This document shows, one piece after another, positions 11,832-45,463 of a DNA stretch of 64,000 bases; position 1 is the first letter of the stretch; each line of letters opens with the position of its first letter. The stretch comes from a virus (lineage: Duplodnaviria; Caudoviricetes): positions 32,001 through 96,000 of IMG/VR virus record IMGVR_UViG_3300028591_000090. One strand, given 5' to 3'. The translations under genes were made by a program, and so were the position numbers. The notes beneath the pieces were generated by a model that ran no database searches, was not told the origin of the DNA, and was given only the letters and a program-made list of their open reading frames with translations.

Positions 11832-13388
11832 TTACAATATAATTTTTTCTGTTGTTATTTCATAATTTTGTTTCTTGTATATTTCTTCTCGTGAATCATA
11901 TTGTTTTTGCGTATGCTTATATGCATTATCAACAAAATCAATAATGGTTACTGCCTTTTTATTTTTAAAATTTCTTAAACCTCTACCAATAGATTGACCA
12001 ATAAGAATAGGCGACTTGTACGATTCTGCAAAAACAATATAGTGAACATTCTTTAAGTCAATACCAGTTGAGAAAGTACCAAAAGAAGCAACAAGATTCA
12101 TATCACTTTTTTCTATTTCTTTTATATATAAACTTCTTTCAAGATTATTTGTACCACCAAAGATATATTTTGTTGGTTTATATTCATTCATTTTTTCTGC
12201 AAGTCTTTTACCAAACTCACCTTTGACATCGTTAAACAATACCAACACGTTCTTCTTTAGTGAACTCACATATTTAACTATTGCATCTGTACGTTGTTCG
12301 TCAGAAGTTATCATATCTCTTTCTAACTTATACAATGCTTTAAAATACTCCAACTCTTCTTGAGAACCTTTACTTGGTCTATTATTATAAAATTCCAAGT
12401 ATTCATTAAATTCTCCACTATTGATTCTTTTAGCATAATCAATTACTACCTTACGTATCTTTACCGTTGGTGCAAAACCATCTTCTATTAAATTTTTAGG
12501 ATTATAGATAAAAGTAATTGGTCCAAGCATTGATAAATTTTCATAATAATCTGCATAGCCAGTACCAACCATTATCGTTCCAGACAATCCAAAACGATAA
12601 CTTAATGGCATAGATAAACGAATAGCACGTTTTATCGAGTCTGTTTTTGCAGTATGTGCTTCATCTACATTTATTACTCTTATACGTTTAAATATATCAT
12701 TTTGAAGCGTATTAAGACTTTGAAATGTTGAAATAATCACTTCTGATTCATTAAAAGTTTTTTCGTCATATTTATAGTCTCCTCCAATACCCATAACTTT
12801 TAATGGATATTTTTCATTATAATAATCAACAGTAAACTTTTCAATTGTTTGTCCAACCAAATCTTTACGTGGAACAATCATTAAAAATTTCTTCTCTACA
12901 GAAATATTACCCATTTTCTTTAAGTATTGAGCAACAGAATATGATATAAGTGTTTTTCCTGCTGCTGTTGATACTTGTTGTGCAGAATATCTATATTTAA
13001 GTATCTTAAAAATTGATTCATACTGATACCAACGAATTTTTATCTCTGGTTCTACGCCAATAAAAAGATTATCAACAAAAGCAGATATATCTTCCAATGT
13101 AATAGCATTGTTAATAAAATGTTCCATACCTTTGATTTCCAACTCGAATCCTCTATCAGTACAATATTTTTCTAATTCTCCCCACAATCCTATAGGTAAA
13201 CAATTTCTCACAAAAAAACTTGTACACCCATCGGAATATCCATTACGTACAGCAGGCTCCATATATGCATTCTTTCTTTTCTTCCTAAAAAATGTCTGCA
13301 TATTATAATATTCAATTTCAGATGGGGCAAATAAACACTCTATAAAGTGTAAATTATTCTGTATTTGAAAAACAAATTTATTAAACAT
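11832..13388 (-). CDS. uvsW: SF2 DNA helicase, T4 UvsW-like
   Basis: TAAGKT, DEAH, GLSGT, FSTGID, QSIGRGLR motifs. Confidence 0.85.
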   Translation of the reverse strand: MFNKFVFQIQNNLHFIECLFAPSEIEYYNMQTFFRKKRKNAYMEPAVRNGYSDGCTSFFVRNCLPIGLWGELEKYCTDRGFELEIKGMEHFINNAITLEDISAFVDNLFIGVEPEIKIRWYQYESIFKILKYRYSAQQVSTAAGKTLISYSVAQYLKKMGNISVEKKFLMIVPRKDLVGQTIEKFTVDYYNEKYPLKVMGIGGDYKYDEKTFNESEVIISTFQSLNTLQNDIFKRIRVINVDEAHTAKTDSIKRAIRLSMPLSYRFGLSGTIMVGTGYADYYENLSMLGPITFIYNPKNLIEDGFAPTVKIRKVVIDYAKRINSGEFNEYLEFYNNRPSKGSQEELEYFKALYKLERDMITSDEQRTDAIVKYVSSLKKNVLVLFNDVKGEFGKRLAEKMNEYKPTKYIFGGTNNLERSLYIKEIEKSDMNLVASFGTFSTGIDLKNVHYIVFAESYKSPILIGQSIGRGLRNFKNKKAVTIIDFVDNAYKHTQKQYDSREEIYKKQNYEITTEKIIL

Positions 13389-15884: not shown

Positions 15885-16033
15885 ATAAAAACGGCTTCAC
15901 GTACCGTTTTGTGGGCTTCAATTAGAATACCACGGAAGTTCATGGTGTGTGTGCACCTAACTTCTCTCACCATAAATCCACACAATTAGTGAGACCTAAA
16001 TCATATAATGCTCCAAATAAGGAGACTTCTTTG

Positions 16034-16107
16034 TGGGAACGGAGAGATTCGAACTCTCACTACATAGATTCTAAGTCTATTGCCTCTACCAATTGGGCTA
16101 CGTTCCC
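16034..16107 (-). tRNA. tRNA-Leu (TAG), short variable loop
   Basis: ATAGA-CTTAGAA-TCTAT; 5-nt variable region. Confidence 0.85.
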
Positions 16108-16166
16108 ATGTGCCCCATACGGAATCCTCACGCTGGGGCTATGATGACAAGCGTTTTTTATTTAGG

Positions 16167-16247
16167 TGCTTTGAGACAAGTTGGGACTCGAACCCAAATC
16201 CGAGGTTTTATTTTAGACCCCGTGTCTTAACCATTAGACGACAAGCA
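16167..16247 (-). ncRNA. tRNA-like RNA (intact D and T arms, oversized anticodon loop, bulged acceptor)
   Basis: GTCT/AGAC D stem, TTGGG-TTCGAGT-CCCAA, CGGGGT-CTAAAATAAA-ACCTCG. Confidence 0.55.
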
Positions 16248-16263
16248 TGAAACACATAAATTG

Positions 16264-16335
16264 TGTTCCGAAAAGGAATCGAACCTTTATTGTCTGCTTA
16301 GAAGGAAGATGTTCTATCCATTGAACTATCGGAAC
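16264..16335 (-). tRNA. tRNA-Arg (TCT)
   Basis: Loop CTTCTAA; one mismatch in anticodon stem. Confidence 0.85.
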
Positions 16336-16339
16336 TTTT

Positions 16340-16564
16340 GCACACCTAACAGCACTCCTATGGAATTACCCAATGGTCTGTTGCCTTTACTGGCTCAGGG
16401 ACTCTGGTTTGTGTGCTCTACTATAGTCCCTTTTTCGTTAAAATTTGGACGCCTGAAGATGCTTCCCTGCGTGGATACTCACGTCCTCGTTCTTACTTCG
16501 CTACTCACGCTTTTAGTCGACATATTAAACGCTTTTGCTTTTCTGACTCAGTTCATTGCTAGTG
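16340..16564 (-). ncRNA. unidentified structured RNA between tRNA-Glu and tRNA-Arg
   Basis: GC-enriched; terminal ACACTAGCA/TGTTAGGTGT, AGGGACT/AGTCCCT and GGACG/CGTCC helices. Confidence 0.45.
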
Positions 16565-16639
16565 TCGTGCATAGGGGATTTGAACCCACTAATTTCTTCC
16601 TTGAAGGGGAAGCGACTTAACCAATTCGTCTAATGCACG
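16565..16639 (-). tRNA. tRNA-Glu (TTC)
   Basis: CTTCC-CCTTCAA-GGAAG. Confidence 0.8.
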
Positions 16640-17443
16640 TTTTTTTAATTTATTATAAATCATTCCTTTACCAGCACAACTTCGTGAACAATAAAATGTT
16701 CCAGTTCTAAATTTACCATGTCTATAAAATAATTTACCACAAAAAGCACATTCATAATTATTATCATAACTATTATCATATAGTTCTTCTAAATGTTTTA
16801 CATTATATTTGTCTTTGCAATAATTTATATAAAATAACATATCATCATAATATAAAACTTTAGAATTTTCTGGTAAATGTTTTAATTTTTCTTCTGTTAT
16901 ATTTGTTTTAAAACCTTTTATTTCATATATTATACCATCTATTTCAAAATCTGGATTATAAAAATGTTTTTCTCCATCAAATTCATATTCTAATTTTTTA
17001 TCACATCTTTTTATGTTTGAATTGTTATCAAGATGATAAATAAGAAATGCAAGTTCCCAAGTAGAATCTAAAAAGAAACCTTTATAAAAACCTTTATGTC
17101 CTCTACCACTACCTTTTCTATATCCTCCATACTTAACATTTTCTTTCAACCATTTTTCTTTACATTCTTCTGAACAATATTTAGAATTTCTCTTTCTTAA
17201 ATCAAATTCAGTACTGCAATATTTACATTTTTTAATTTTTGGTATTTTGGCTTTTTCTCTTCTAATTTCGTTATTAAAAGGGACCCATTTACCACCATGC
17301 ATTAAAGTGTAACCAATTTTCTTTTTTGTTTCTTCTGAATGGTGTCGTGTATTTGCACAACTTTTAGAACAAAATCTTCCAGAACCATAATTCCCATTAT
17401 GTTCTTTTCCACAATTTTCACAAATAAAAATTTGATTTTCCAT
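16589..17443 (-). CDS. free-standing homing-endonuclease-like protein (Cys/Zn repeats plus PD-(D/E)xK domain)
   Basis: CENCGK..FCSKSC repeats, HSEETKKKI (NUMOD3-like), DSTWE..YNPDF..IYEIKG. Confidence 0.75.
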   Translation of the reverse strand: MENQIFICENCGKEHNGNYGSGRFCSKSCANTRHHSEETKKKIGYTLMHGGKWVPFNNEIRREKAKIPKIKKCKYCSTEFDLRKRNSKYCSEECKEKWLKENVKYGGYRKGSGRGHKGFYKGFFLDSTWELAFLIYHLDNNSNIKRCDKKLEYEFDGEKHFYNPDFEIDGIIYEIKGFKTNITEEKLKHLPENSKVLYYDDMLFYINYCKDKYNVKHLEELYDNSYDNNYECAFCGKLFYRHGKFRTGTFYCSRSCAGKGMIYNKLKKRALDELVKSLPLQGRN

Positions 17444-17582
17444 AATTATTTTTATCTTTTTTTATAGGTTATTGGTAGTAACCTTTATTTTATTTAGTTT
17501 TAAAAAATAGTAGTTAGATAAAACTATGGATAATTTTATCAATTGGCTACCAACCAGATGTCCTACTATTTTTATAGTTTAT

Positions 17583-17661
17583 GCTTGTGTATGATAGGCT
17601 TCGAACCATATGCCTCTCTATCTCTATAGATTGTTCTGCCATATTAAACTACAACACAAGC
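17583..17661 (-). ncRNA. tRNA-like RNA with 4-nt loop in place of the anticodon loop
   Basis: Extended acceptor GCTTGTGT/ACACAAGC, D arm, TCTAT-AGAG-ATAGA, TTCGAA T loop. Confidence 0.55.
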
Positions 17662-17783
17662 ATTTCGTTTTACTAAAAACTCTACGACTTTGCAAAACTA
17701 CTCCGTGGAAAACGATACACGTTTCATTTACTTAAACCATCCATTGAGACCGGATGCAGTCTCATTTAAGCGTGTGAATTTTG

Positions 17784-17860
17784 CGGTGACAGTAGGATTC
17801 GAACCTACGACCCAGGGATTAACAGTCCCTTGCTCTAAAAACCAACTGAGCTATGTCACC
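17784..17860 (-). tRNA. tRNA-Asn (GTT)
   Basis: AGGGA-CTGTTAA-TCCCT. Confidence 0.9.
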
Positions 17861-17864
17861 ATAA

Positions 17865-17937
17865 TATTTAAGTTTGGAATCGAACCAAAGCCTTTCTCAA
17901 TACATGGAGAAGATGCAGACCACTACACTACTTAAAC
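17865..17937 (-). ncRNA. tRNA-like RNA with 8-nt anticodon loop
   Basis: TTCTC-CATGTATT-GAGAA; acceptor and T arm intact. Confidence 0.55.
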
Positions 17938-17938
17938 G

Positions 17939-18012
17939 TGGACCAGACTGGGCTTGAACCAGTGACCTCCTGATTATGAGTCAGTTGCTCTGACCAACTG
18001 AGCTACAGGTCC
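17939..18012 (-). tRNA. tRNA-Ile2/Met (CAT), Ile2-like body
   Basis: CTGA-CTCATAA-TCAG; body resembles lysidine-type Ile2 tRNAs. Confidence 0.8.
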
Positions 18013-18165
18013 AAAAAAAGTGGTAGAAGGAATAGTTTCAAATCCATAGAAAAACATGGAAATTGTTTATAATTTAATAATTACTGGGTGAACTACTACA
18101 CCCTCTATCCCATTGTTGAAAACTTTTGAGAATACTTTTCTAATTAATAACTACCACTTAAATCT
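18013..18165 (-). ncRNA. orphan TnpB omegaRNA-like scaffold (18035..18165) plus putative guide (18013..18034)
   Basis: Close copy of 29910..30045 (tnpB 3' end and right end), diverging after GAAACTAT. Confidence 0.75.
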
Positions 18166-18281
18166 TCGCCGTGCTGACCTTACACCTATGATTGCTACTC
18201 TTACACATATTAGTTGTACACCTAAATATGTGATATGGTGCACCGTTTCACAACCACGCAGACTCGAACTGCACCTGCGAC
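18166..18281 (-). ncRNA. circularly permuted tRNA-like RNA (YrlA/Y-RNA-like topology)
   Basis: Order 5' TCGC, T arm, TGGTTG...CAATCA acceptor closed by insert, D arm, GCGA 3'. Confidence 0.55.
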
Positions 18282-18292
18282 ATGCTTTTTTG

Positions 18293-18363
18293 CTCGGTCG
18301 AAGGGACTCGAACCCTCATACGCCCCCGTCAATGGGGCTGTTCTACCGTTAAACTACAACCAA
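18293..18363 (-). ncRNA. atypical tRNA (loop ATTGACG, class I body)
   Basis: Full cloverleaf but A32/C37 loop; TGA anticodon without the Ser long arm. Confidence 0.55.
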
Positions 18364-18458
18364 GAAACACATTCTAACGCTGCAACATTATTATGTGCCA
18401 ATGGACATAAATGCTTTAATCGTTTGCAGACAATCTTTGCATTCGCCAATCCATTTAG

Positions 18459-18530
18459 AACAAGAAATGAGAATCGAACTCACATATCCAGTTTTGAAGA
18501 CTGGAGCACTAACCGTTGTGCTATTCTTGC
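18459..18530 (-). tRNA. opal (UGA-reading) suppressor tRNA, anticodon TCA, tRNA-Gly-like body
   Basis: CCAGT-CTTCAAA-ACTGG; body closely resembles tRNA-Gly at 20196; U73. Confidence 0.85.
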
Positions 18531-18539
18531 ATTTTTATG

Positions 18540-18626
18540 TGGCTCAAATCGGACTCGAACCGATACGAGCATTTCTGCCCCTGGGATTTTAAGTCCCATG
18601 CGTACTACCAATTTCGCCACTGAGCC
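18540..18626 (-). tRNA. tRNA-Leu (TAA)
   Basis: TGGGA-CTTAAAA-TCCCA, long variable arm. Confidence 0.9.
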
Positions 18627-18634
18627 AAAATTTG

Positions 18635-18751
18635 AGTCGCCAACTGGATTCGAACCAGTATCTCCAATGTGATTTAGGAAAATCTTACGTATTGTACAGA
18701 ATGAGGCTGTACCGACCTCAAATACGTTGGCACCTATTAGACGATGGCGAC
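18635..18751 (-). ncRNA. tRNA-like RNA with pseudoknotted ~40-nt insertion in the D region
   Basis: Perfect GTCGCCA/TGGCGAC acceptor and T arm; insert ACGTATT[TGAGG..GTACAG CCTCA]CTGTAC AATACGT. Confidence 0.55.
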
Positions 18752-18757
18752 AAAAAG

Positions 18758-18860
18758 TTGTGTTAGATGGATTCGAACCAACAATGTATGCTATTCTACA
18801 TGCTTATTTACATACTCCTACCACAAATGTAGGTGGGTTTACCATTTCCCCTATAACACG
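18758..18860 (-). ncRNA. class II-like tRNA with TTG anticodon and very long variable arm
   Basis: CCTAC-ATTTGTG-GTAGG; ~34-nt variable region closed by GTATG/CATAC. Confidence 0.55.
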
Positions 18861-18867
18861 AATTTTG

Positions 18868-18939
18868 TTGCGAGAGAGGGATTCGAACCCACGACCTACA
18901 GCTTATGAGGCTGCCGAGCTACCTCTGCTCTATCTCGCA
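18868..18939 (-). tRNA. tRNA-Met (CAT), initiator-like D arm
   Basis: GCAGC-CTCATAA-GCTGT; GAGC/GCTC D stem. Confidence 0.85.
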
Positions 18940-18952
18940 ATATATTTTATTG

Positions 18953-19026
18953 TGGTCGTTCTACGACTCGAACGTAGGACTTCTTCGGTATCAGCGAAGT
19001 ACTCTAACCAACTGAGTTAAACGACC
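18953..19026 (-). tRNA. tRNA-Ile (GAT)
   Basis: CTTCG-CTGATAC-CGAAG. Confidence 0.9.
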
Positions 19027-19039
19027 AAGAATAATCAAA

Positions 19040-19435
19040 ACTAAAAAGTGTGTTTAATCATTAAGTAACATTATAGTAAACACAGATTATTGTCTACATC
19101 CGTAACACGGCTTTCGTTACTAATCACTTTGCAAGCAAAGGCAACAATAATCTTTTACTTTTTTACAAACTCTTTTTCTGTTCGATGGCGAGTTTATTTA
19201 TGGTCCATTTCCGTTGCCAAGTAACATAATTCATAGCAAACAATCACGGAAACCTACGATGAGTTGTTGAGTAACAAACAAAAGTTGCTATATCAAGGAC
19301 GACATATATATAATCGGCTAAATGACCGACTTTCAGAACCTTGTTCTGCTATCCGAGATTATCTTACCTTGATTTAAGATAGATACAAATTCATTGTATC
19401 TCTTGGAGAGTTTAGGCAGTAGTTGTCTTTCTACT
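19040..19435 (-). ncRNA. large (~400 nt) unidentified structured RNA
   Basis: About ten helices, long-range AAACTCT/AGAGTTT, pseudoknot ATCAAGG/CCTTGAT, no ORF. Confidence 0.6.
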
Positions 19436-19437
19436 TG

Positions 19438-19511
19438 CGGGTAGTACGAGATTCGAACTCGTGAACTCCTCATAGACAGTGAGGAATGATAGACCGCTTC
19501 ACCAACTACCC
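19438..19511 (-). tRNA. tRNA-Asp (GTC)
   Basis: CCTCA-CTGTCTA-TGAGG. Confidence 0.88.
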
Positions 19512-19629
19512 AAATTTGAGGTTATTTTTATACGTATGGCTCGTAAACTTATTCTGTCTTTCTTATGCGTTCTGCTGTTACACATTAGTCTAAAGAAGTA
19601 ACATCTATAAGTATATTTACGATTTCCAT

Positions 19630-19729
19630 TTCACCTCAAGCATCATTTGTTTAAATGCTTACGTTTACATCTTTTTCCTTTTCCCGTATGTCAAAGAACT
19701 CGTTTGTTTTATTTAACGATGCAAATATA
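19630..19729 (-). promoter_or_regulatory. internal promoter, boxA-like element and conserved leader hairpin
   Basis: TATATTTGC (19721-29), GAGTTCTTTGACATACGGGAAAA, AGCATTTA..AAATGATGCT..AGGTGA; paralogous to 21715..21847. Confidence 0.75.
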
Positions 19730-19785
19730 CAACAATGTTTTGAAACAACCAAATAAAACAACAACTTTTTTTTATTTTTTTTTTG

Positions 19786-19871
19786 CGGAGATTGTAGGAC
19801 TTGAACCTACACGTCTTACGACTACTGACAGTTTAGCAAACTGCTCCCTTACCAATTAGGGTTAAATCTCC
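19786..19871 (-). tRNA. tRNA-Ser (GCT)
   Basis: GCAGT-TTGCTAA-ACTGT, long arm. Confidence 0.9.
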
Positions 19872-19881
19872 ATATTATATG

Positions 19882-19954
19882 TACTCGTGCAGAGACTCGA
19901 ACTCCAATCTTCAGATCCGTAGTCTGATATTCTAATCCATTGAACTACACGAGC
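19882..19954 (-). tRNA. tRNA-Arg (ACG)
   Basis: TCAGA-CTACGGA-TCTGA. Confidence 0.9.
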
Positions 19955-19959
19955 AGTTG

Positions 19960-20031
19960 AGCACTCTATTGGAGTCAAACCAATTTATACGGTTTTGCAG
20001 ACCGCCACCTAAATCGTCCGGTACAGAGTGC
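19960..20031 (-). tRNA. tRNA-Cys (GCA)
   Basis: GCGGT-CTGCAAA-ACCGT, U73. Confidence 0.82.
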
Positions 20032-20195
20032 AAAAATGTGTTGGAAAATCCTCGTGCAACACCACACGCCAACTCAACGATTTGGCTCCATCTCGTAAGA
20101 TGCTACTTTAGAAAGTTTTCCCAAAGCATTCACACAATTAGTGTGAGAGACGTTTCGATCCTACTTTTAACATGTATTATATGTAGGCTATAATG

Positions 20196-20267
20196 AGCAG
20201 ATAAAGAGAATCGAACTCTCATCTCCAGAGTGGAAGTCTGGAGCACTAACCATTGTGCTATATCTGC
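20196..20267 (-). tRNA. tRNA-Gly (TCC)
   Basis: CCAGA-CTTCCAC-TCTGG, U73. Confidence 0.9.
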
Positions 20268-20272
20268 ATAAA

Positions 20273-20512
20273 TTATCTTAATTCAATTAATTCTTCTTTT
20301 TCTATTGCTTTACGAATCCAACGCATCAAAATAATTGCTTTATCATAATGGCACATAAACGTAGCAGTTTCTCCTACATCGTGTGTGTCTGCCAAATTGA
20401 TTTCCAATTGATATTTTTTACCACTTTCTGACGTTAATTCATAAATTGCAACACCGCCTGCTTTAACGCAAACCATATCTGCATTTCCTTTAATAATATC
20501 TTTCAAATCCAT
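20273..20512 (-). CDS. small hypothetical protein inside the tRNA operon
   Basis: Start moved to MDLKDIIK (the longer call overlaps tRNA-Pro). Confidence 0.7.
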   Translation of the reverse strand: MDLKDIIKGNADMVCVKAGGVAIYELTSESGKKYQLEINLADTHDVGETATFMCHYDKAIILMRWIRKAIEKEELIELR

Positions 20513-20531
20513 AATATATGTATTATTTTTG

Positions 20532-20604
20532 TCTGGGTAGCAAGACTCGAACTTGCGACCTGATGGTCCCAAACCACCCGTTCTACCAACTGAACTATAC
20601 CCAG
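20532..20604 (-). tRNA. tRNA-Pro (TGG)
   Basis: GGTGG-TTTGGGA-CCATC. Confidence 0.9.
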
Positions 20605-20613
20605 TTTATTTAG

Positions 20614-20686
20614 TGACTCCGATGAGGTTCGAACTCATGACCCCATCCTTAAAAGGGATGTGCTCTCCCAACTGAGCTACGAAGTC
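20614..20686 (-). tRNA. tRNA-Lys (TTT)
   Basis: CATCC-CTTTTAA-GGATG. Confidence 0.92.
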
Positions 20687-20954
20687 ATGTGCTAATATCG
20701 TATGTTCTTCGTTTTGTTTGTTCTGGGCGGTTAAAAGAGAACAACAGATTTGGTAGTCTTTTCAATCTTAGCATTTTCTGAAAAGAATCGTTCCGCACCT
20801 ACGTCTAACTTTTGTACTATTCACCACGAGTTTACGATGACCTTGAGTCTGTTTACGATTACCAGTCGTTCCAGAAGTCCATCTACATAGTTACTTTGGC
20901 AAGTTTCGTCTATGCCAGCGTTTGTTTATAACCTCAACGCAATTTGGTATTTTG

Positions 20955-21029
20955 TGGAAGCGATGGGACTTGAACCCACGACTTTCTGCGTGCAAGGCAG
21001 ATGTTCTAGCCAAACTGAACTACACCCCC
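20955..21029 (-). tRNA. tRNA-Ala (TGC)
   Basis: TCTGC-CTTGCAC-GCAGA; G3.U70. Confidence 0.92.
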
Positions 21030-21039
21030 ATAAAAGAAT

Positions 21040-21250
21040 CTTGACGTATTTCTTATGAGAATTCCTTCAACGGATTATTTAGTGCCATTAAATAACCATT
21101 CCTTTGATTTTGTCTGTTATGCATAAATGAACTTATGCACTCTAACCATATGTCATATACGTTAGAATGTTTTCCCGACAAATCGTGAAGGTTAAGGCTC
21201 AAAGTACTAAGTTTACCTTTTCTTCACGACTGCTATGATATAGCGTCAGG
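21040..21250 (-). ncRNA. unidentified multi-hairpin RNA (~210 nt)
   Basis: Ends pair (CCTGACG/CGTCAAG); TCGTGAAG/CTTCACGA, TGCATAA/TTATGCA and other internal hairpins. Confidence 0.5.
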
Positions 21251-21261
21251 CTGCAATTGCG

Positions 21262-29885: not shown

Positions 29886-29909
29886 TTCTCAATTAAATCA
29901 TTTTATATA

Positions 29910-31264
29910 GTTTCAAAATCCATAGCAAAATATGGAAATTGTTTATAATTTAACAATTACTGGGTGAACTACAACACCCTCTATCCCATCGTTGAAAACT
30001 TTTGGGAATGCTTTTCTCATGATGTTATAGCTTCCGTTTACATCTGCGTTTATCTTGTTCCCATTTTCTGAAATAAACAAGCCACGGCGAACACGCTTGC
30101 CTTTATAAACATCATGCTTTTTAATTTCTTCCAAATCAAGGAAACTGCATTTAGATGTGTAGTTTTCCTCGTTTGTAATTACTTTTATCCCCACCTTTTC
30201 GCATTTGTATGAAATCATTTCAACAAATCTACTGTGGGGTATTTGTATGAAGTTCTGATTGTTTTTTGAACCGATGTTACAGTCTTTCTTCCATCCGTCG
30301 TTCTTTCCAATAACCAGAACAGATATATTCTTGTCTTTTAAATCATTGACTATTCTCTTACTTGCACGATGCAAGTAGTTGTCTACTTTATTATTCCTTT
30401 TATTTGTGAGCCTTCTTGTCCTATGCGAATGCTTTTTCTTATTGACTTTTTCTAATTTAGACTTATGTTTCGCAAGTTCCTTATTATAGAACTGGTTCAT
30501 CGATTTCAAAGGTTTTCCGTTTATTATAACTGGCTGTTCTCCATACGAATATGTTACCGTAGCAAGGTTATTAACGCCTAAATCAATTGAGGCAATTCTT
30601 TTATTGAATTTTACTTTTTCTACATCATCTATTGTATAGATTACCTCAATTACATATTGCTCGATTCTTGGAACAATCCTTACACAATTTATTGATTTAA
30701 AGTCGTTTATTTTTGTATAAAATTCTATGTTTACTTTTGATAGTTTAATTTTATGGGACTTATCAAATACTTTTTTTGAGATAGTCTGATTGTTGAATAC
30801 TGTAACATATCTTCCATCTTCTTTGTGTAAGAATTTTGGAAACTTGATGTTTTTATTATCAACATTATTTGAACGAATCATTCCGAAAAACGAGTTGCAA
30901 GTCGCATGAACAGCACGAAGTGTCGCCTGAGCAACCTTCTGCGGAAGTCGCTTGAAGCATTCATCGTTCTTCATATATAAATACGAATCATTCAATACAT
31001 TATATGTTTTGCTTTCTTCATATTCCTTTCGTATCAGATATAATGTCCTGTTATATATGTTTTTTGAAGAAAAACACAGCGAATCACATTCCTTATATAA
31101 GGAATGATTTCTATTAATAATATGTCTTTCTACCAATTGCATTTCTGTATAATAATACAGTTTCTTTTTATTATTTATTTGCAAAAATAATTGATTTTTT
31201 TTGTCAAATAAATTGTATTGTTTCCATAAATTTTCTATAATGTTATATAAAAATAATACAGACA
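29910..31264 (-). mobile_element. non-autonomous IS200/IS605-type tnpB element (right end +/-3 nt)
   Basis: Inserted after TTTAT; removal restores the C-terminus ...IPASLLYKMI* of the interrupted gene; subterminal hairpin and TTTGAAAC end. Confidence 0.7.
29943..31142 (-). CDS. tnpB: TnpB RNA-guided endonuclease (399 aa from MQLVERH), rearranged RuvC-II type
   Basis: SIDLGVNN, VIG in place of the usual E with alternative E in NEENYTS, INADVNG. Confidence 0.88.
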   Translation of the reverse strand: MQLVERHIINRNHSLYKECDSLCFSSKNIYNRTLYLIRKEYEESKTYNVLNDSYLYMKNDECFKRLPQKVAQATLRAVHATCNSFFGMIRSNNVDNKNIKFPKFLHKEDGRYVTVFNNQTISKKVFDKSHKIKLSKVNIEFYTKINDFKSINCVRIVPRIEQYVIEVIYTIDDVEKVKFNKRIASIDLGVNNLATVTYSYGEQPVIINGKPLKSMNQFYNKELAKHKSKLEKVNKKKHSHRTRRLTNKRNNKVDNYLHRASKRIVNDLKDKNISVLVIGKNDGWKKDCNIGSKNNQNFIQIPHSRFVEMISYKCEKVGIKVITNEENYTSKCSFLDLEEIKKHDVYKGKRVRRGLFISENGNKINADVNGSYNIMRKAFPKVFNDGIEGVVVHPVIVKL

Positions 31265-31973
31265 ATAAACTTGCTGGAATATTTTCATAAGTGAAATAAC
31301 AATTTTTAATATTCATTGCTGTATCTTTATATATCTTAATATTATTTAATTTATTTAAATTTATTTTAAAAACAACATATTGTTTAAGTCCAAGACTATC
31401 TGCCAATTCTGATAATTGTTCATCTATTGTACTAAAATCACTTGTTGAATATAAAAAAATCTTTTCTGGATAATATCTATATTCTGCACTTCGGCAACGT
31501 AATCCTTTTTTCATAATAAAGTTATAGTTTCTTTTATTTGTTATATGGAAACAAATTCCTTTATTTTCATTAAAGATTATATCCGTTGCATCTGTTGTAT
31601 AAACTGGTTCTATATATAATGTATCATCATCATTATAAGTAATATAATAATTAAAAAAATCTAATATATTTTTAAAATGTTCATTTAACAGTATTTCTAT
31701 TTTCCTATCTTTATTTTTACATTTAATTTCAAGGTTTGTTTTATCATCACTTGTTATCTTATTATATTCAACATCATCTGCAACATATTGTTTTAATTTT
31801 GCAATAAGAGAGTCTATATTATGAGATTGTAACATTTCACCTATAAAATCATATCTCCAATCTTCATTAAATTTTTCTTCAATCAATGAAAAGTCATTAC
31901 CGAAGAAATCTTTCAAAAATTTCTTTTTCTCGCAACATTTACAATATTCGTCAAACAGTAATACTTTTTTCAT
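29943..31973 (-). CDS. in-frame fusion ORF: ADP-ribosyltransferase-fold-like phage protein plus TnpB
   Basis: N-terminal part has FHIT.....I.KKGL..IFL..VFKI..YFTYENIP pattern; read-through across the IS left end has no stop. Confidence 0.5.
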   Translation of the reverse strand: MKKVLLFDEYCKCCEKKKFLKDFFGNDFSLIEEKFNEDWRYDFIGEMLQSHNIDSLIAKLKQYVADDVEYNKITSDDKTNLEIKCKNKDRKIEILLNEHFKNILDFFNYYITYNDDDTLYIEPVYTTDATDIIFNENKGICFHITNKRNYNFIMKKGLRCRSAEYRYYPEKIFLYSTSDFSTIDEQLSELADSLGLKQYVVFKINLNKLNNIKIYKDTAMNIKNCYFTYENIPASLLSVLFLYNIIENLWKQYNLFDKKNQLFLQINNKKKLYYYTEMQLVERHIINRNHSLYKECDSLCFSSKNIYNRTLYLIRKEYEESKTYNVLNDSYLYMKNDECFKRLPQKVAQATLRAVHATCNSFFGMIRSNNVDNKNIKFPKFLHKEDGRYVTVFNNQTISKKVFDKSHKIKLSKVNIEFYTKINDFKSINCVRIVPRIEQYVIEVIYTIDDVEKVKFNKRIASIDLGVNNLATVTYSYGEQPVIINGKPLKSMNQFYNKELAKHKSKLEKVNKKKHSHRTRRLTNKRNNKVDNYLHRASKRIVNDLKDKNISVLVIGKNDGWKKDCNIGSKNNQNFIQIPHSRFVEMISYKCEKVGIKVITNEENYTSKCSFLDLEEIKKHDVYKGKRVRRGLFISENGNKINADVNGSYNIMRKAFPKVFNDGIEGVVVHPVIVKL

Positions 31974-43829: not shown

Positions 43830-43915
43830 ACAATATATCCGATGAAATAAAATTACTCAAACTTACTCAATGCTTGATTTGAATAATTCTCTGTGGATTG
43901 CAATCCACTCCATCG
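43830..43915 (-). ncRNA. putative omegaRNA scaffold of the second TnpB-like gene
   Basis: TCCGATGG/TCATCGGA enclosing GTGGATTGCAATCCAC and AATTATTCAAA/TTTGAGTAATT hairpins over the stop codon. Confidence 0.5.
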
Positions 43916-45463
43916 GAACGACAGAAGTTTATCCTTTAAATCACATCTTTTGATATTCAAAGGTTCAAAACTTCCGTCAATATTTTGTTTTAAGAGTGGT
44001 CGAAACACGGTTTCGCTTACTCTGTTTCTTATATTGACACTTGCATTATGGTCTGCATTATCACTATGACCACAACATGTACATACAAATTCTTCTTGTG
44101 TTTTTCTATTGTTCTTATCTATGTTTCCACAAACAGAACACATTTGACTGGTGTAGGAAGAGTGTACTATTGATAATTGCATGCCATAATTCTGTGCTAT
44201 ATGTTTAACTTCTTGCTTTAAAGATGAAATATTTAGTGCAGATACAAGTCTATTGTAATTTATCTTATCAAATTCTTCTGTTTTTGCAAACGATTTCTCA
44301 AATCCATTGTCAAGATTTTCCATAACAATATGGTCATAACCATTAGAAGATAATGTTTTACACATTTTGGCAATCAGATTCTTATTAGAATATTTTATCT
44401 TGTTCGCTATGACATCTATCTTGTGTTGTCTTCTTTTACCAACGGTATATTTTTCATCTTTAGACTTCAAATCATCAGTATACTTTCGTTCTGACAAATA
44501 ATCCTTGACTAATTTGTGATTGTAGTCAAAAATTTCTCCAGTAGAGCAAGAAAATAGATTATGTTTAGTATTTACGTCAATTCCTATAAATGATTTTTTG
44601 TTCTCTATCATTATTCTCTCGCAATCCTTGCACAGATTAATCTTAATTGTTTTGTGATATTCGTCAAAACAAATTATATATTCATAGTCATTCGTCTGTT
44701 TCCTCCAAGACATCATATTATCGTGGTAATCCTTTGCAAATTTAACAGGTATATCAAAGGACTTTCTATCAAATCCAGATAGACTAATGAAAGCATTTAT
44801 TACAGAGTTATAGTTCTTATTGTAGTCAACAATTCTTTTCTTTCTGCTTCTTCCACCGAATGTCAACTTCTTGAACTCGATTGGTTCTTTGTATCGTTTT
44901 AATATATAGTCTCTCTTCTGGCGTGTGAGATTCCATAGTCTTTCAAATCCAAATTTGTCAATGACTCTATTCATCATAGAGAAGAAATCCTCTTCCGTCT
45001 TTAAACGAATAAACTCAAGAACAGATGTATTGTTACATTTAATAAGATACGTTAATGTCTTTGACAAATCAGTCGAACTTCTTCTTATCTTTGTCTTCTT
45101 GAAATCACCTTTCTTGTTTTTCTTTGTAGTCCTTTTATAAAACTCAAGACCAAGGTACTCAACTTTCTCAAACTTTAGTTTTCTCCTTAATTGAACGAAC
45201 CGATTCTCATAGCAAGTATAAACGTGAGTATAGAGTTGGTTATCGAATGACGATGGAATTTTGTTTTTGTACTTATTCCTCATATATTTCATAAAGTCAA
45301 ACTTCGACATTTCGTGATAAAACATTATGTTTGAATTCACATCATTTGATACAATATTCTTGTGGTTACGTAATGTAATAGCAAAGTCATACAACTCATT
45401 GTACTTTTCCTTAGTCAATGAGTCTGACATAAATGATTTAGTATGTTTGCTTTGAATTATCAC
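43853..45463 (-). CDS. tnpB: large TnpB/Cas12f-like RuvC nuclease (536 aa)
   Basis: GIDVN, VMENL, TSQMCSVCG..CTCCG..NADHNAS.NI. Confidence 0.85.
   Translation of the reverse strand: MIIQSKHTKSFMSDSLTKEKYNELYDFAITLRNHKNIVSNDVNSNIMFYHEMSKFDFMKYMRNKYKNKIPSSFDNQLYTHVYTCYENRFVQLRRKLKFEKVEYLGLEFYKRTTKKNKKGDFKKTKIRRSSTDLSKTLTYLIKCNNTSVLEFIRLKTEEDFFSMMNRVIDKFGFERLWNLTRQKRDYILKRYKEPIEFKKLTFGGRSRKKRIVDYNKNYNSVINAFISLSGFDRKSFDIPVKFAKDYHDNMMSWRKQTNDYEYIICFDEYHKTIKINLCKDCERIMIENKKSFIGIDVNTKHNLFSCSTGEIFDYNHKLVKDYLSERKYTDDLKSKDEKYTVGKRRQHKIDVIANKIKYSNKNLIAKMCKTLSSNGYDHIVMENLDNGFEKSFAKTEEFDKINYNRLVSALNISSLKQEVKHIAQNYGMQLSIVHSSYTSQMCSVCGNIDKNNRKTQEEFVCTCCGHSDNADHNASVNIRNRVSETVFRPLLKQNIDGSFEPLNIKRCDLKDKLLSFRWSGLQSTENYSNQALSKFE

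Follow-up and report, generated by a model that had tools for sequence, protein, structure and literature searches.

A protein-less omegaRNA-type relic of a tnpB element in a phage tRNA operon and its possible use by the phage TnpB

Within the tRNA operon of a giant phage of the Bacteroidota type, directly before a tRNA gene with the anticodon CAT, lies a scaffold of the omegaRNA type that represents the right end of a tnpB element and carries no tnpB gene. The explanation that we favour, with a confidence that is about evenly balanced, sees in this scaffold a non-autonomous omegaRNA relic, still transcribed and available for loading by the TnpB of the phage, with the tRNA leader of related phages, in its uninterrupted form, as the default target. 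On this view a tnpB-only insertion sequence at some time entered the leader of tRNA(CAT) and has survived there as a protein-less remainder, and the later loss of the left end and of nearly all of tnpB would have left the conserved omegaRNA scaffold and its adjoining flank. The window, that is the whole stretch of 64,000 nucleotides that was analysed and in which positions are given here, comprises bases 32001-96000 of a 183,630-bp IMG/VR virus record with an estimated completeness of 69%. The same contig is also present in the protein database as a 197.5-kb version, and the G+C content of the phage is 29%.

The orphan scaffold, here called orphan A, occupies 18032-18141 on the minus strand and consists of four helices followed by the tail GAAACTAT. 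Compared with the in-cis scaffold at the 3' end of the phage tnpB (29907-30017, minus strand, with the tnpB stop codon at 29943-29945), it differs over 111 nt by seven substitutions and the deletion of a single nucleotide, corresponding to 94% identity, and the ungapped match between 18040-18144 and 29916-30020 has 92% identity. The repeat, which had been proposed in an earlier note on this DNA, is real, and the same applies to the preserved terminal hairpin (TCCATG..CTATGGA versus TCCATA..CTATGGA) and to the ...TTTGAAAC end. The extent of about 135 nt given there (18035-18165) has to be read with more caution, as about 111 nt are well conserved while a further 35 nt or so are only 58% identical and include a 4-nt gap. 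That no tnpB ORF is attached to orphan A could be verified by tblastn, which matched only the last 26 codons' worth of the gene. What remains of the coding sequence is a degenerate 3' remnant at 18142-18175 (minus strand; the NADVNGSYNI part), which is identical to the cis copy at 16 of 22 positions in register and in which a 4-nt gap breaks the frame. The 36 nt adjoining the scaffold are 42% diverged, versus 6% in the scaffold itself (P = 2.5e-6), and this step at the scaffold edge may reflect either constraint on the scaffold since the truncation or a homology that merely stops there. The 183.6-kb record contains three scaffold copies in total, the third of which is located outside the window.

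The tRNA array at 15.7-21.7 kb holds 24 tRNAs on the minus strand, which is also the strand of the genes. From 5' to 3' on this strand the order is tRNA-Ser, a G+C-richer stretch, the decayed tnpB, the 110-nt scaffold, the 19-nt flank and tRNA(CAT) from 18012. The tRNA-Ser(TGA) gene (18292-18363, minus strand; ARAGORN and Rfam) is the upstream neighbour of orphan A in one transcription unit, and the tRNA with anticodon CAT, which is either Met or Ile2 (17938-18012, minus strand; ARAGORN, and 67.8 bits with the Rfam tRNA model), follows immediately 3' of the flank. The G+C-richer stretch of about 115 nt (18176-18291, minus strand) contains tRNA-like pieces, i.e. a T-arm-like GCAG-TTCGAGT-CTGC and acceptor-like strands, and two strands could pair as an acceptor stem in permuted order. 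The stretch showed no homology to the tnpB element, the left end included, and no Rfam match, and its fold z-score was only -0.78 against shuffles. A promoter box of the Bacteroidota-type -7 kind, TATATTTGC (19721-19729, minus strand), heads the tRNA unit that holds orphan A. The box TAnnTTTG, mostly in the form TATATTTGC here, is over-represented, with 37 matches versus 16 expected, which points to a Bacteroidota host. Between this promoter and the orphan A region a single terminator-like site was called, and this site is helix 2 of the orphan itself (18103-18086), which is invariant in the family. Since the orphan lies on the operon strand, with a promoter upstream and no independent terminator called, it should be co-transcribed with the tRNAs.

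Some other features of the array may be mentioned. Many of its spacers (15885-21260) are 230-410 nt long, and several contain tRNA-like sequences with large inserts that are not called by ARAGORN (e.g. 16108-16262 and 18627-18866). There is also a 99-aa ORF within the array (20273-20572), a tRNA-like gene with a four-base anticodon call (TGTA; 17865-17937, minus strand), and a tRNA with the anticodon TCA, which would read UGA (18458-18530, minus strand); the ORFs of the window still look normal under table 11.

The phage TnpB itself is encoded 12 kb away from orphan A. The tnpB core of 399 aa plus stop (29943-31142, minus strand, with the ATG at 31142) matches NF040570 with 166 bits and the Pfam families OrfB_IS605 and TNB, and it forms part of a 676-aa ORF (29943-31973) in which residues 278-676 are a complete TnpB that covers the whole NF040570 profile. 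The ORF is uninterrupted and retains D186, E326 and D367 (core numbering), at columns that are at least 90% conserved in 28 homologs, and judging from these D/E/D residues the protein is expected to be catalytically intact. The glutamate stands just before the TSKCSF motif, which corresponds to the rearranged placement reported for proteins of the Fanzor type. The first 277 residues of the ORF are an unrelated phage protein, whose gene (31256-31973, minus strand; homologs standalone, 245-281 aa) had its 3' end cut by the insertion and now reads in frame into tnpB. Interpretation of the 676-aa ORF as a large Cas12-like protein was ruled out on account of this separate N-terminal protein, and an apparent match of the C-terminus of the upstream protein to its homologs proved spurious. 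A PDB sequence search with the 676-aa ORF gave no match.

The left end of the tnpB element (31143-31255, minus strand) has its own promoter box (31181-31189), a hairpin CTGTAT-TATT-ATACAG and a junction between TGTAT and TATTTTT. It is shared with a copy at an unrelated site (L177), which shows that it extends to about 31255; two junctions considered before, one between GAAACTGTAT and TATTATAC and the other between AATTAT and TTTTGC, were superseded by this comparison. The closest TnpB relatives, 87-91% identical, are standalone proteins of 399 aa (364 aa in one case) found at unrelated sites in other phage-like contigs, and in a distant relative both flanking genes are present at the syntenic site without tnpB. 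The tnpB is an ordinary recent and mobile tnpB-only insertion of about 1.35 kb. The domestication of tnpB suggested in the earlier note does not agree with an insertion that cut a phage gene, is absent from the syntenic site and has such close copies elsewhere. The window also contains a second, different TnpB-like ORF of 536 aa (43853-45463, minus strand), which reaches 96 bits with NF040570, below the cut-off; none of the three scaffold copies corresponds to its 3' end.

The scaffold is part of a large TnpB family, the 20-nt pattern of which, GAGGGTGTNGTAGTTCACCC, was found at 7 IMG/VR loci and at more than 118 metagenome loci, while an exact 29-nt pattern used earlier had zero matches in IMG/VR, as the relatives differ from it. 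All copies have the right end AACTAT, or AACTAC in one subfamily, and the unrelated sequence that follows at each locus indicates that the element ends there. Helix 1 (TTCCC/GGGAT) exhibits compensatory pairs at 4 of 6 positions, helix 2 (GGGTG/CACCC) is invariant, and the segment from CACCC to AACTAT forms exactly two hairpins, helices 3 and 4, in 87 of the 88 unique copies, which represent 28 sequence clusters. Helices 3 and 4 were counted by single-sequence folds, since their lengths vary and the combination of MAFFT and RNAalifold recovered helices 1 and 2 only. Orphan A folds like the rest of the family. Five of its seven substitutions relative to the in-cis copy are in loops or linkers, the two in stems change C-G and A-U pairs to G.U, and no pair is broken (P = 0.038 for random placement). 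Of the checks proposed in the earlier note, the alignment of the two copies reveals no disrupted helix, and the covariation within the family gives the fold strong support. The structure-preserving substitutions could, on the other hand, be older than the truncation. An Rfam scan of the scaffold gave no family at the gathering threshold or at E<=10, and membership of RAGATH-18 was rejected for want of an Rfam match.

A serine-recombinase-like ORF (C-terminal part) was recognised by eye directly upstream of tnpB in several members of the family (L008/L012, L045, L095 and L121), and on this by-eye call the scaffold family may be linked to IS607. In the CboIStron study (10.1101/2023.11.20.567912) an IS607 element has the target TGGG versus the right end TCGG. 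The scaffold family is similar to this system in having a putative tnpA-like ORF upstream in several members, a one-base difference between end and target, and a guide that starts directly after the end. It differs in that its ends are A/T-rich (AACTAT) and the junctions KTAT, instead of the GG end and G-rich TAM of IS607, that it gives no RAGATH-18 match, and that the phage tnpB copy is without tnpA. At the left-end junction, 12 of 13 cyanobacterial copies have (G)GTAT, and the phage lineage has TGTAT, TTTAT and TGTAT. Judging from these junctions and by analogy with the IS607 element, the target motif is probably KTAT, versus CTAT at the right end.

The 19-nt flank TCCTTCTACCACTTTTTTT (18031-18013, minus strand) is at the same time the would-be guide and the 5' leader of the next tRNA. 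The earlier note had described a new guide of 22 nt abutting the tRNA. The flank does end exactly at tRNA(CAT) +1, but the guide is 19 nt long, as the first TAT belongs to the element, all family copies ending in AACTAT or AACTAC and diverging only afterwards. The in-cis guide region, ATAAAATGATTTAATTGAGA (29887-29906, minus strand), coincides with the 5' UTR of the gene that follows. Members of this family always have as guide the DNA beside the right end, so any insertion or relic has a different one, and a new spacer is in itself no evidence of reprogramming. Nine of the 19 guide bases, CTACCACTT, are predicted to pair perfectly with AAGTGGTAG, located 5' of the scaffold (P = 0.014), and the three differences from the cis copy within this 9-mer all increase pairing. 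Such a closing helix takes in part of the TAM-proximal half of the guide in the predicted fold, and it could block the target search or serve another purpose.

In the mechanism that we propose, the relic would be transcribed within the tRNA operon, which agrees with the observed strand, the upstream promoter box and the lack of an independent terminator call, and RNase P cleavage at tRNA +1 would then leave a 19-nt 3' extension. The intact TnpB would bind the scaffold in trans, as suggested by the 94% identity and the intact fold, and the resulting RNP would recognise KTAT followed by TCCTTCTACCAC..., that is the uninterrupted tRNA leader in co-infecting relatives. As an outcome, the relic would home or a competitor would be excluded, which is the ordinary selfish role of TnpB and involves no re-aimed defence. 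Such use in trans is plausible given that the scaffold lies on a transcribed strand and has no stem-breaking change and that TnpB keeps its D/E/D residues.

The search for the guide in hosts and phages that had been recommended in the earlier note gave no target: neither a protospacer with a cognate TAM nor an empty-site allele was found in the phage, the fetched loci, IMG/VR or the 596 Gb of prokaryotic genomes searched, and these collections contain no close relatives in which the empty allele could have been seen. The phage's own genome has no other guide match within 2 mismatches, the nearest sites having 3 mismatches in 16 positions. In IMG/VR the guide 17-mer occurs in 14 contigs representing 5 contexts, none with TAT before it, and the prokaryotic genomes gave 26 matches to TAT plus 15 guide nucleotides, which is about the chance number. 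These 26 are scattered over phyla and genes, with G or T at position -4 in 11 of them and a shared gene context in one homologous pair only. An apparent enrichment of Bacteroidota among them (about 11 of 26) is most simply compositional and was not accepted as a target signal. The idea that related phages keep the scaffold with variable guides was not borne out in the one moderately close relative available (L176; 75% identity in the neighbouring 284-aa protein), which has a short tRNA array and lacks both tRNA(CAT) and the scaffold. Closer relatives were not found in the collections, also when the search was made with the tRNA(CAT) 41-mer.

Scaffold-only copies are found at other loci as well. 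Where 1.3 kb or more of sequence is available upstream, scaffold-only copies number 9 and intermediate truncations 5, a ratio that would not be expected from random 5' truncation of a 1.2-kb gene, and some scaffold-only copies (L139 and L122) are mini-elements composed of left end and right end. The third scaffold copy of the record, orphan B, also has no tnpB and is located outside the window (G000:C1:~13100-13363, corresponding to L003:1340-1608; plus strand). Its scaffold is 83% identical, with two fully compensatory pair changes, one in helix 1 and one in helix 4, and it keeps part of the left end, including the promoter box TATATTTGCAAATAAATAA that is also found in the cis left end. A 5' module of about 120 nt (GGTTxT-hairpin-GTAAAAYC...GTAGATTT-hairpin) is common to orphan B and the orphans L013, L071, L073 and L105 and is absent from full-length elements. 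Alignments that would assign this module (GTTC...GGTTGT...) to orphan A as well are ambiguous and were not relied on. Orphan B is a PATE-like mini-element, and it provides a stronger hint that omegaRNA-only units of the scaffold family are kept.

Long spacers, tRNA fragments and small ORFs give the tRNA array a mosaic character, and in such a junk-tolerant region orphan A might be an inert scar, i.e. a dead fragment that is transcribed as tRNA spacer, degraded and never used by TnpB. The loss of the left end and of the gene, the target search without a result, the partial sequestration of the guide in the predicted fold and the absence of the locus from the relative L176 are all in line with this, and seven substitutions give the structural comparison weak power (P = 0.038). 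Less easily reconciled with a scar are the 94% identity of the scaffold to the in-cis copy against 42% divergence in the adjoining 36 nt, the unbroken stems, the recurrence of scaffold-only copies far beyond the expectation from random truncation, and the presence of an intact cognate TnpB. We regard a scar as a serious, if somewhat unlikely, explanation. To the possibility that the locus is an exapted structured spacer we give little credence. Here AAGUGGUAG...CUACCACUU would close the four helices, and the structure would be kept for processing or stability of the tRNA precursor, or as some other stable RNA, independently of TnpB. The perfect 9-bp closing helix (P = 0.014), the increased pairing from all three differences in the 9-mer, the fold of the whole 279-nt spacer, which is better than that of shuffles (z = -2.55), and the other structured spacers in the array are consistent with such a function. 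It is, however, a single case, in which the helix was noticed post hoc and is absent from both the cis copy and orphan B.

The reading put forward in the earlier note, a domesticated tRNA-processed cassette that directs TnpB in trans against the host or an unrelated competitor phage, fits the geometry, in which the scaffold is followed by 19 nt and then by tRNA +1 on the operon strand, and it would make sense of three scaffold copies with three different flanks and one cognate TnpB. Parts of this proposal are retained in the explanation we favour, namely an orphan scaffold of the phage's own tnpB family with an intact fold, its orientation with the operon and a flank that ends at the RNase P site, but reprogramming and a target are not. 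Any insertion would have such a flank, the 26 matches in 596 Gb are scattered with no common gene or taxon, the IMG/VR matches of the 17-mer fall into 5 contexts with TAT before none, and the tnpB is a recent mobile insertion and no conserved phage gene. A re-aimed cassette therefore appears very improbable to us.

Protein-less omegaRNA elements used in trans have been proposed before, and what distinguishes the present one is that its 3' end falls on an RNase P site. In many cases a PATE element encodes an omegaRNA that has to be used in trans (Meers et al. 2023, 10.1101/2023.03.14.532601), and the role of TnpB as a nuclease for homing, with cleavage of the empty site, is established (10.1101/2023.03.14.532601; 10.1101/2023.11.20.567912). 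Co-infecting phages are listed as targets of non-restorative transposon homing (2026 review, PMC13565253), and T4 SegB cuts the tRNA region of related phages (as cited in PMC13565253). With these precedents the relic preferred here would be another case of a known class. Like the PATE-like IS200/IS605 elements, orphan A has no protein gene and combines a right end, an omegaRNA scaffold and an adjacent guide with a TnpB encoded elsewhere. PATEs, in contrast, have retained their two ends and move by means of a Y1 TnpA, whereas orphan A is without a left end, no similarity to 31143-31255 being found upstream of it, belongs to a family with a putative link to a serine recombinase and is situated in a phage tRNA operon. 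Orphan B, with left end, promoter and right end, has both ends and is the closer PATE analogue. The likeness to T4 SegB, a free-standing homing endonuclease, is that the nuclease of one phage would cleave the tRNA genes of a relative in the same cell and so favour inheritance of its own allele; the recognition would here be RNA-guided.

If TnpB loads the relic, one nuclease would be served by three guides at three loci, and one of these guides would obtain its 3' end from RNase P. We know of no homing or marker exclusion at phage tRNA regions other than by protein homing endonucleases, e.g. SegB, and a loaded relic would thus extend RNA-guided homing and marker exclusion to such regions. It would also be a natural counterpart of the engineered polycistronic tRNA-gRNA arrays, man-made constructs in which tRNA processing enzymes define the gRNA end, and plausibly a step towards the uncoupling of guides from transposon ends, with the difference that the juxtaposition in the phage may be accidental and that only the 3' end abuts a tRNA. 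It is tempting to speculate further, though we consider it unlikely, that protein-less omegaRNA genes are maintained at scattered places in the genomes of giant phages, some of them driven by a promoter of their own and one matured through tRNA processing, and that together they supply a single TnpB with several guides for cutting co-infecting relatives at several loci; this would constitute an array-free step from a fixed-guide transposon nuclease to a multi-spacer system of the Cas12-like type. For the present, the locus is a well-supported case of a known class, that of omegaRNA-only relics and mini-elements. The scaffold family is without an Rfam model, and its more than 88 unique copies, four-helix fold, AACTAT end and KTAT junction could seed one.

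The same IS lineage is found in another phage as a 5'-truncated sister copy beside a tmRNA gene and a tRNA array, with 94% amino acid identity over the last 98 codons; no intact TnpB was present in the 32% of the genome of this phage that was available. Beyond its right end the sister copy (L006:3334-3400, equivalent to L011, L085 and L147) is flanked by a tRNA T-arm-like fragment, GGGGAAACATGAGTTCGATTCTCAT, located 63 nt before the tmRNA gene. This lineage lands in or beside tRNA-type genes more than once. In three scaffold-only copies of the cyanobacterial type (L049, L090 and L122, the last of which keeps the left end besides) a different conserved and structured module of about 110 nt, GAGTCGATGACATCTGA...GGGTGAAAGTCC...GTGCGAAGTCGG..., is located upstream of the scaffold. 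The module of L049 gave no Rfam match, and it may be a ribozyme- or intron-like passenger in the three copies.
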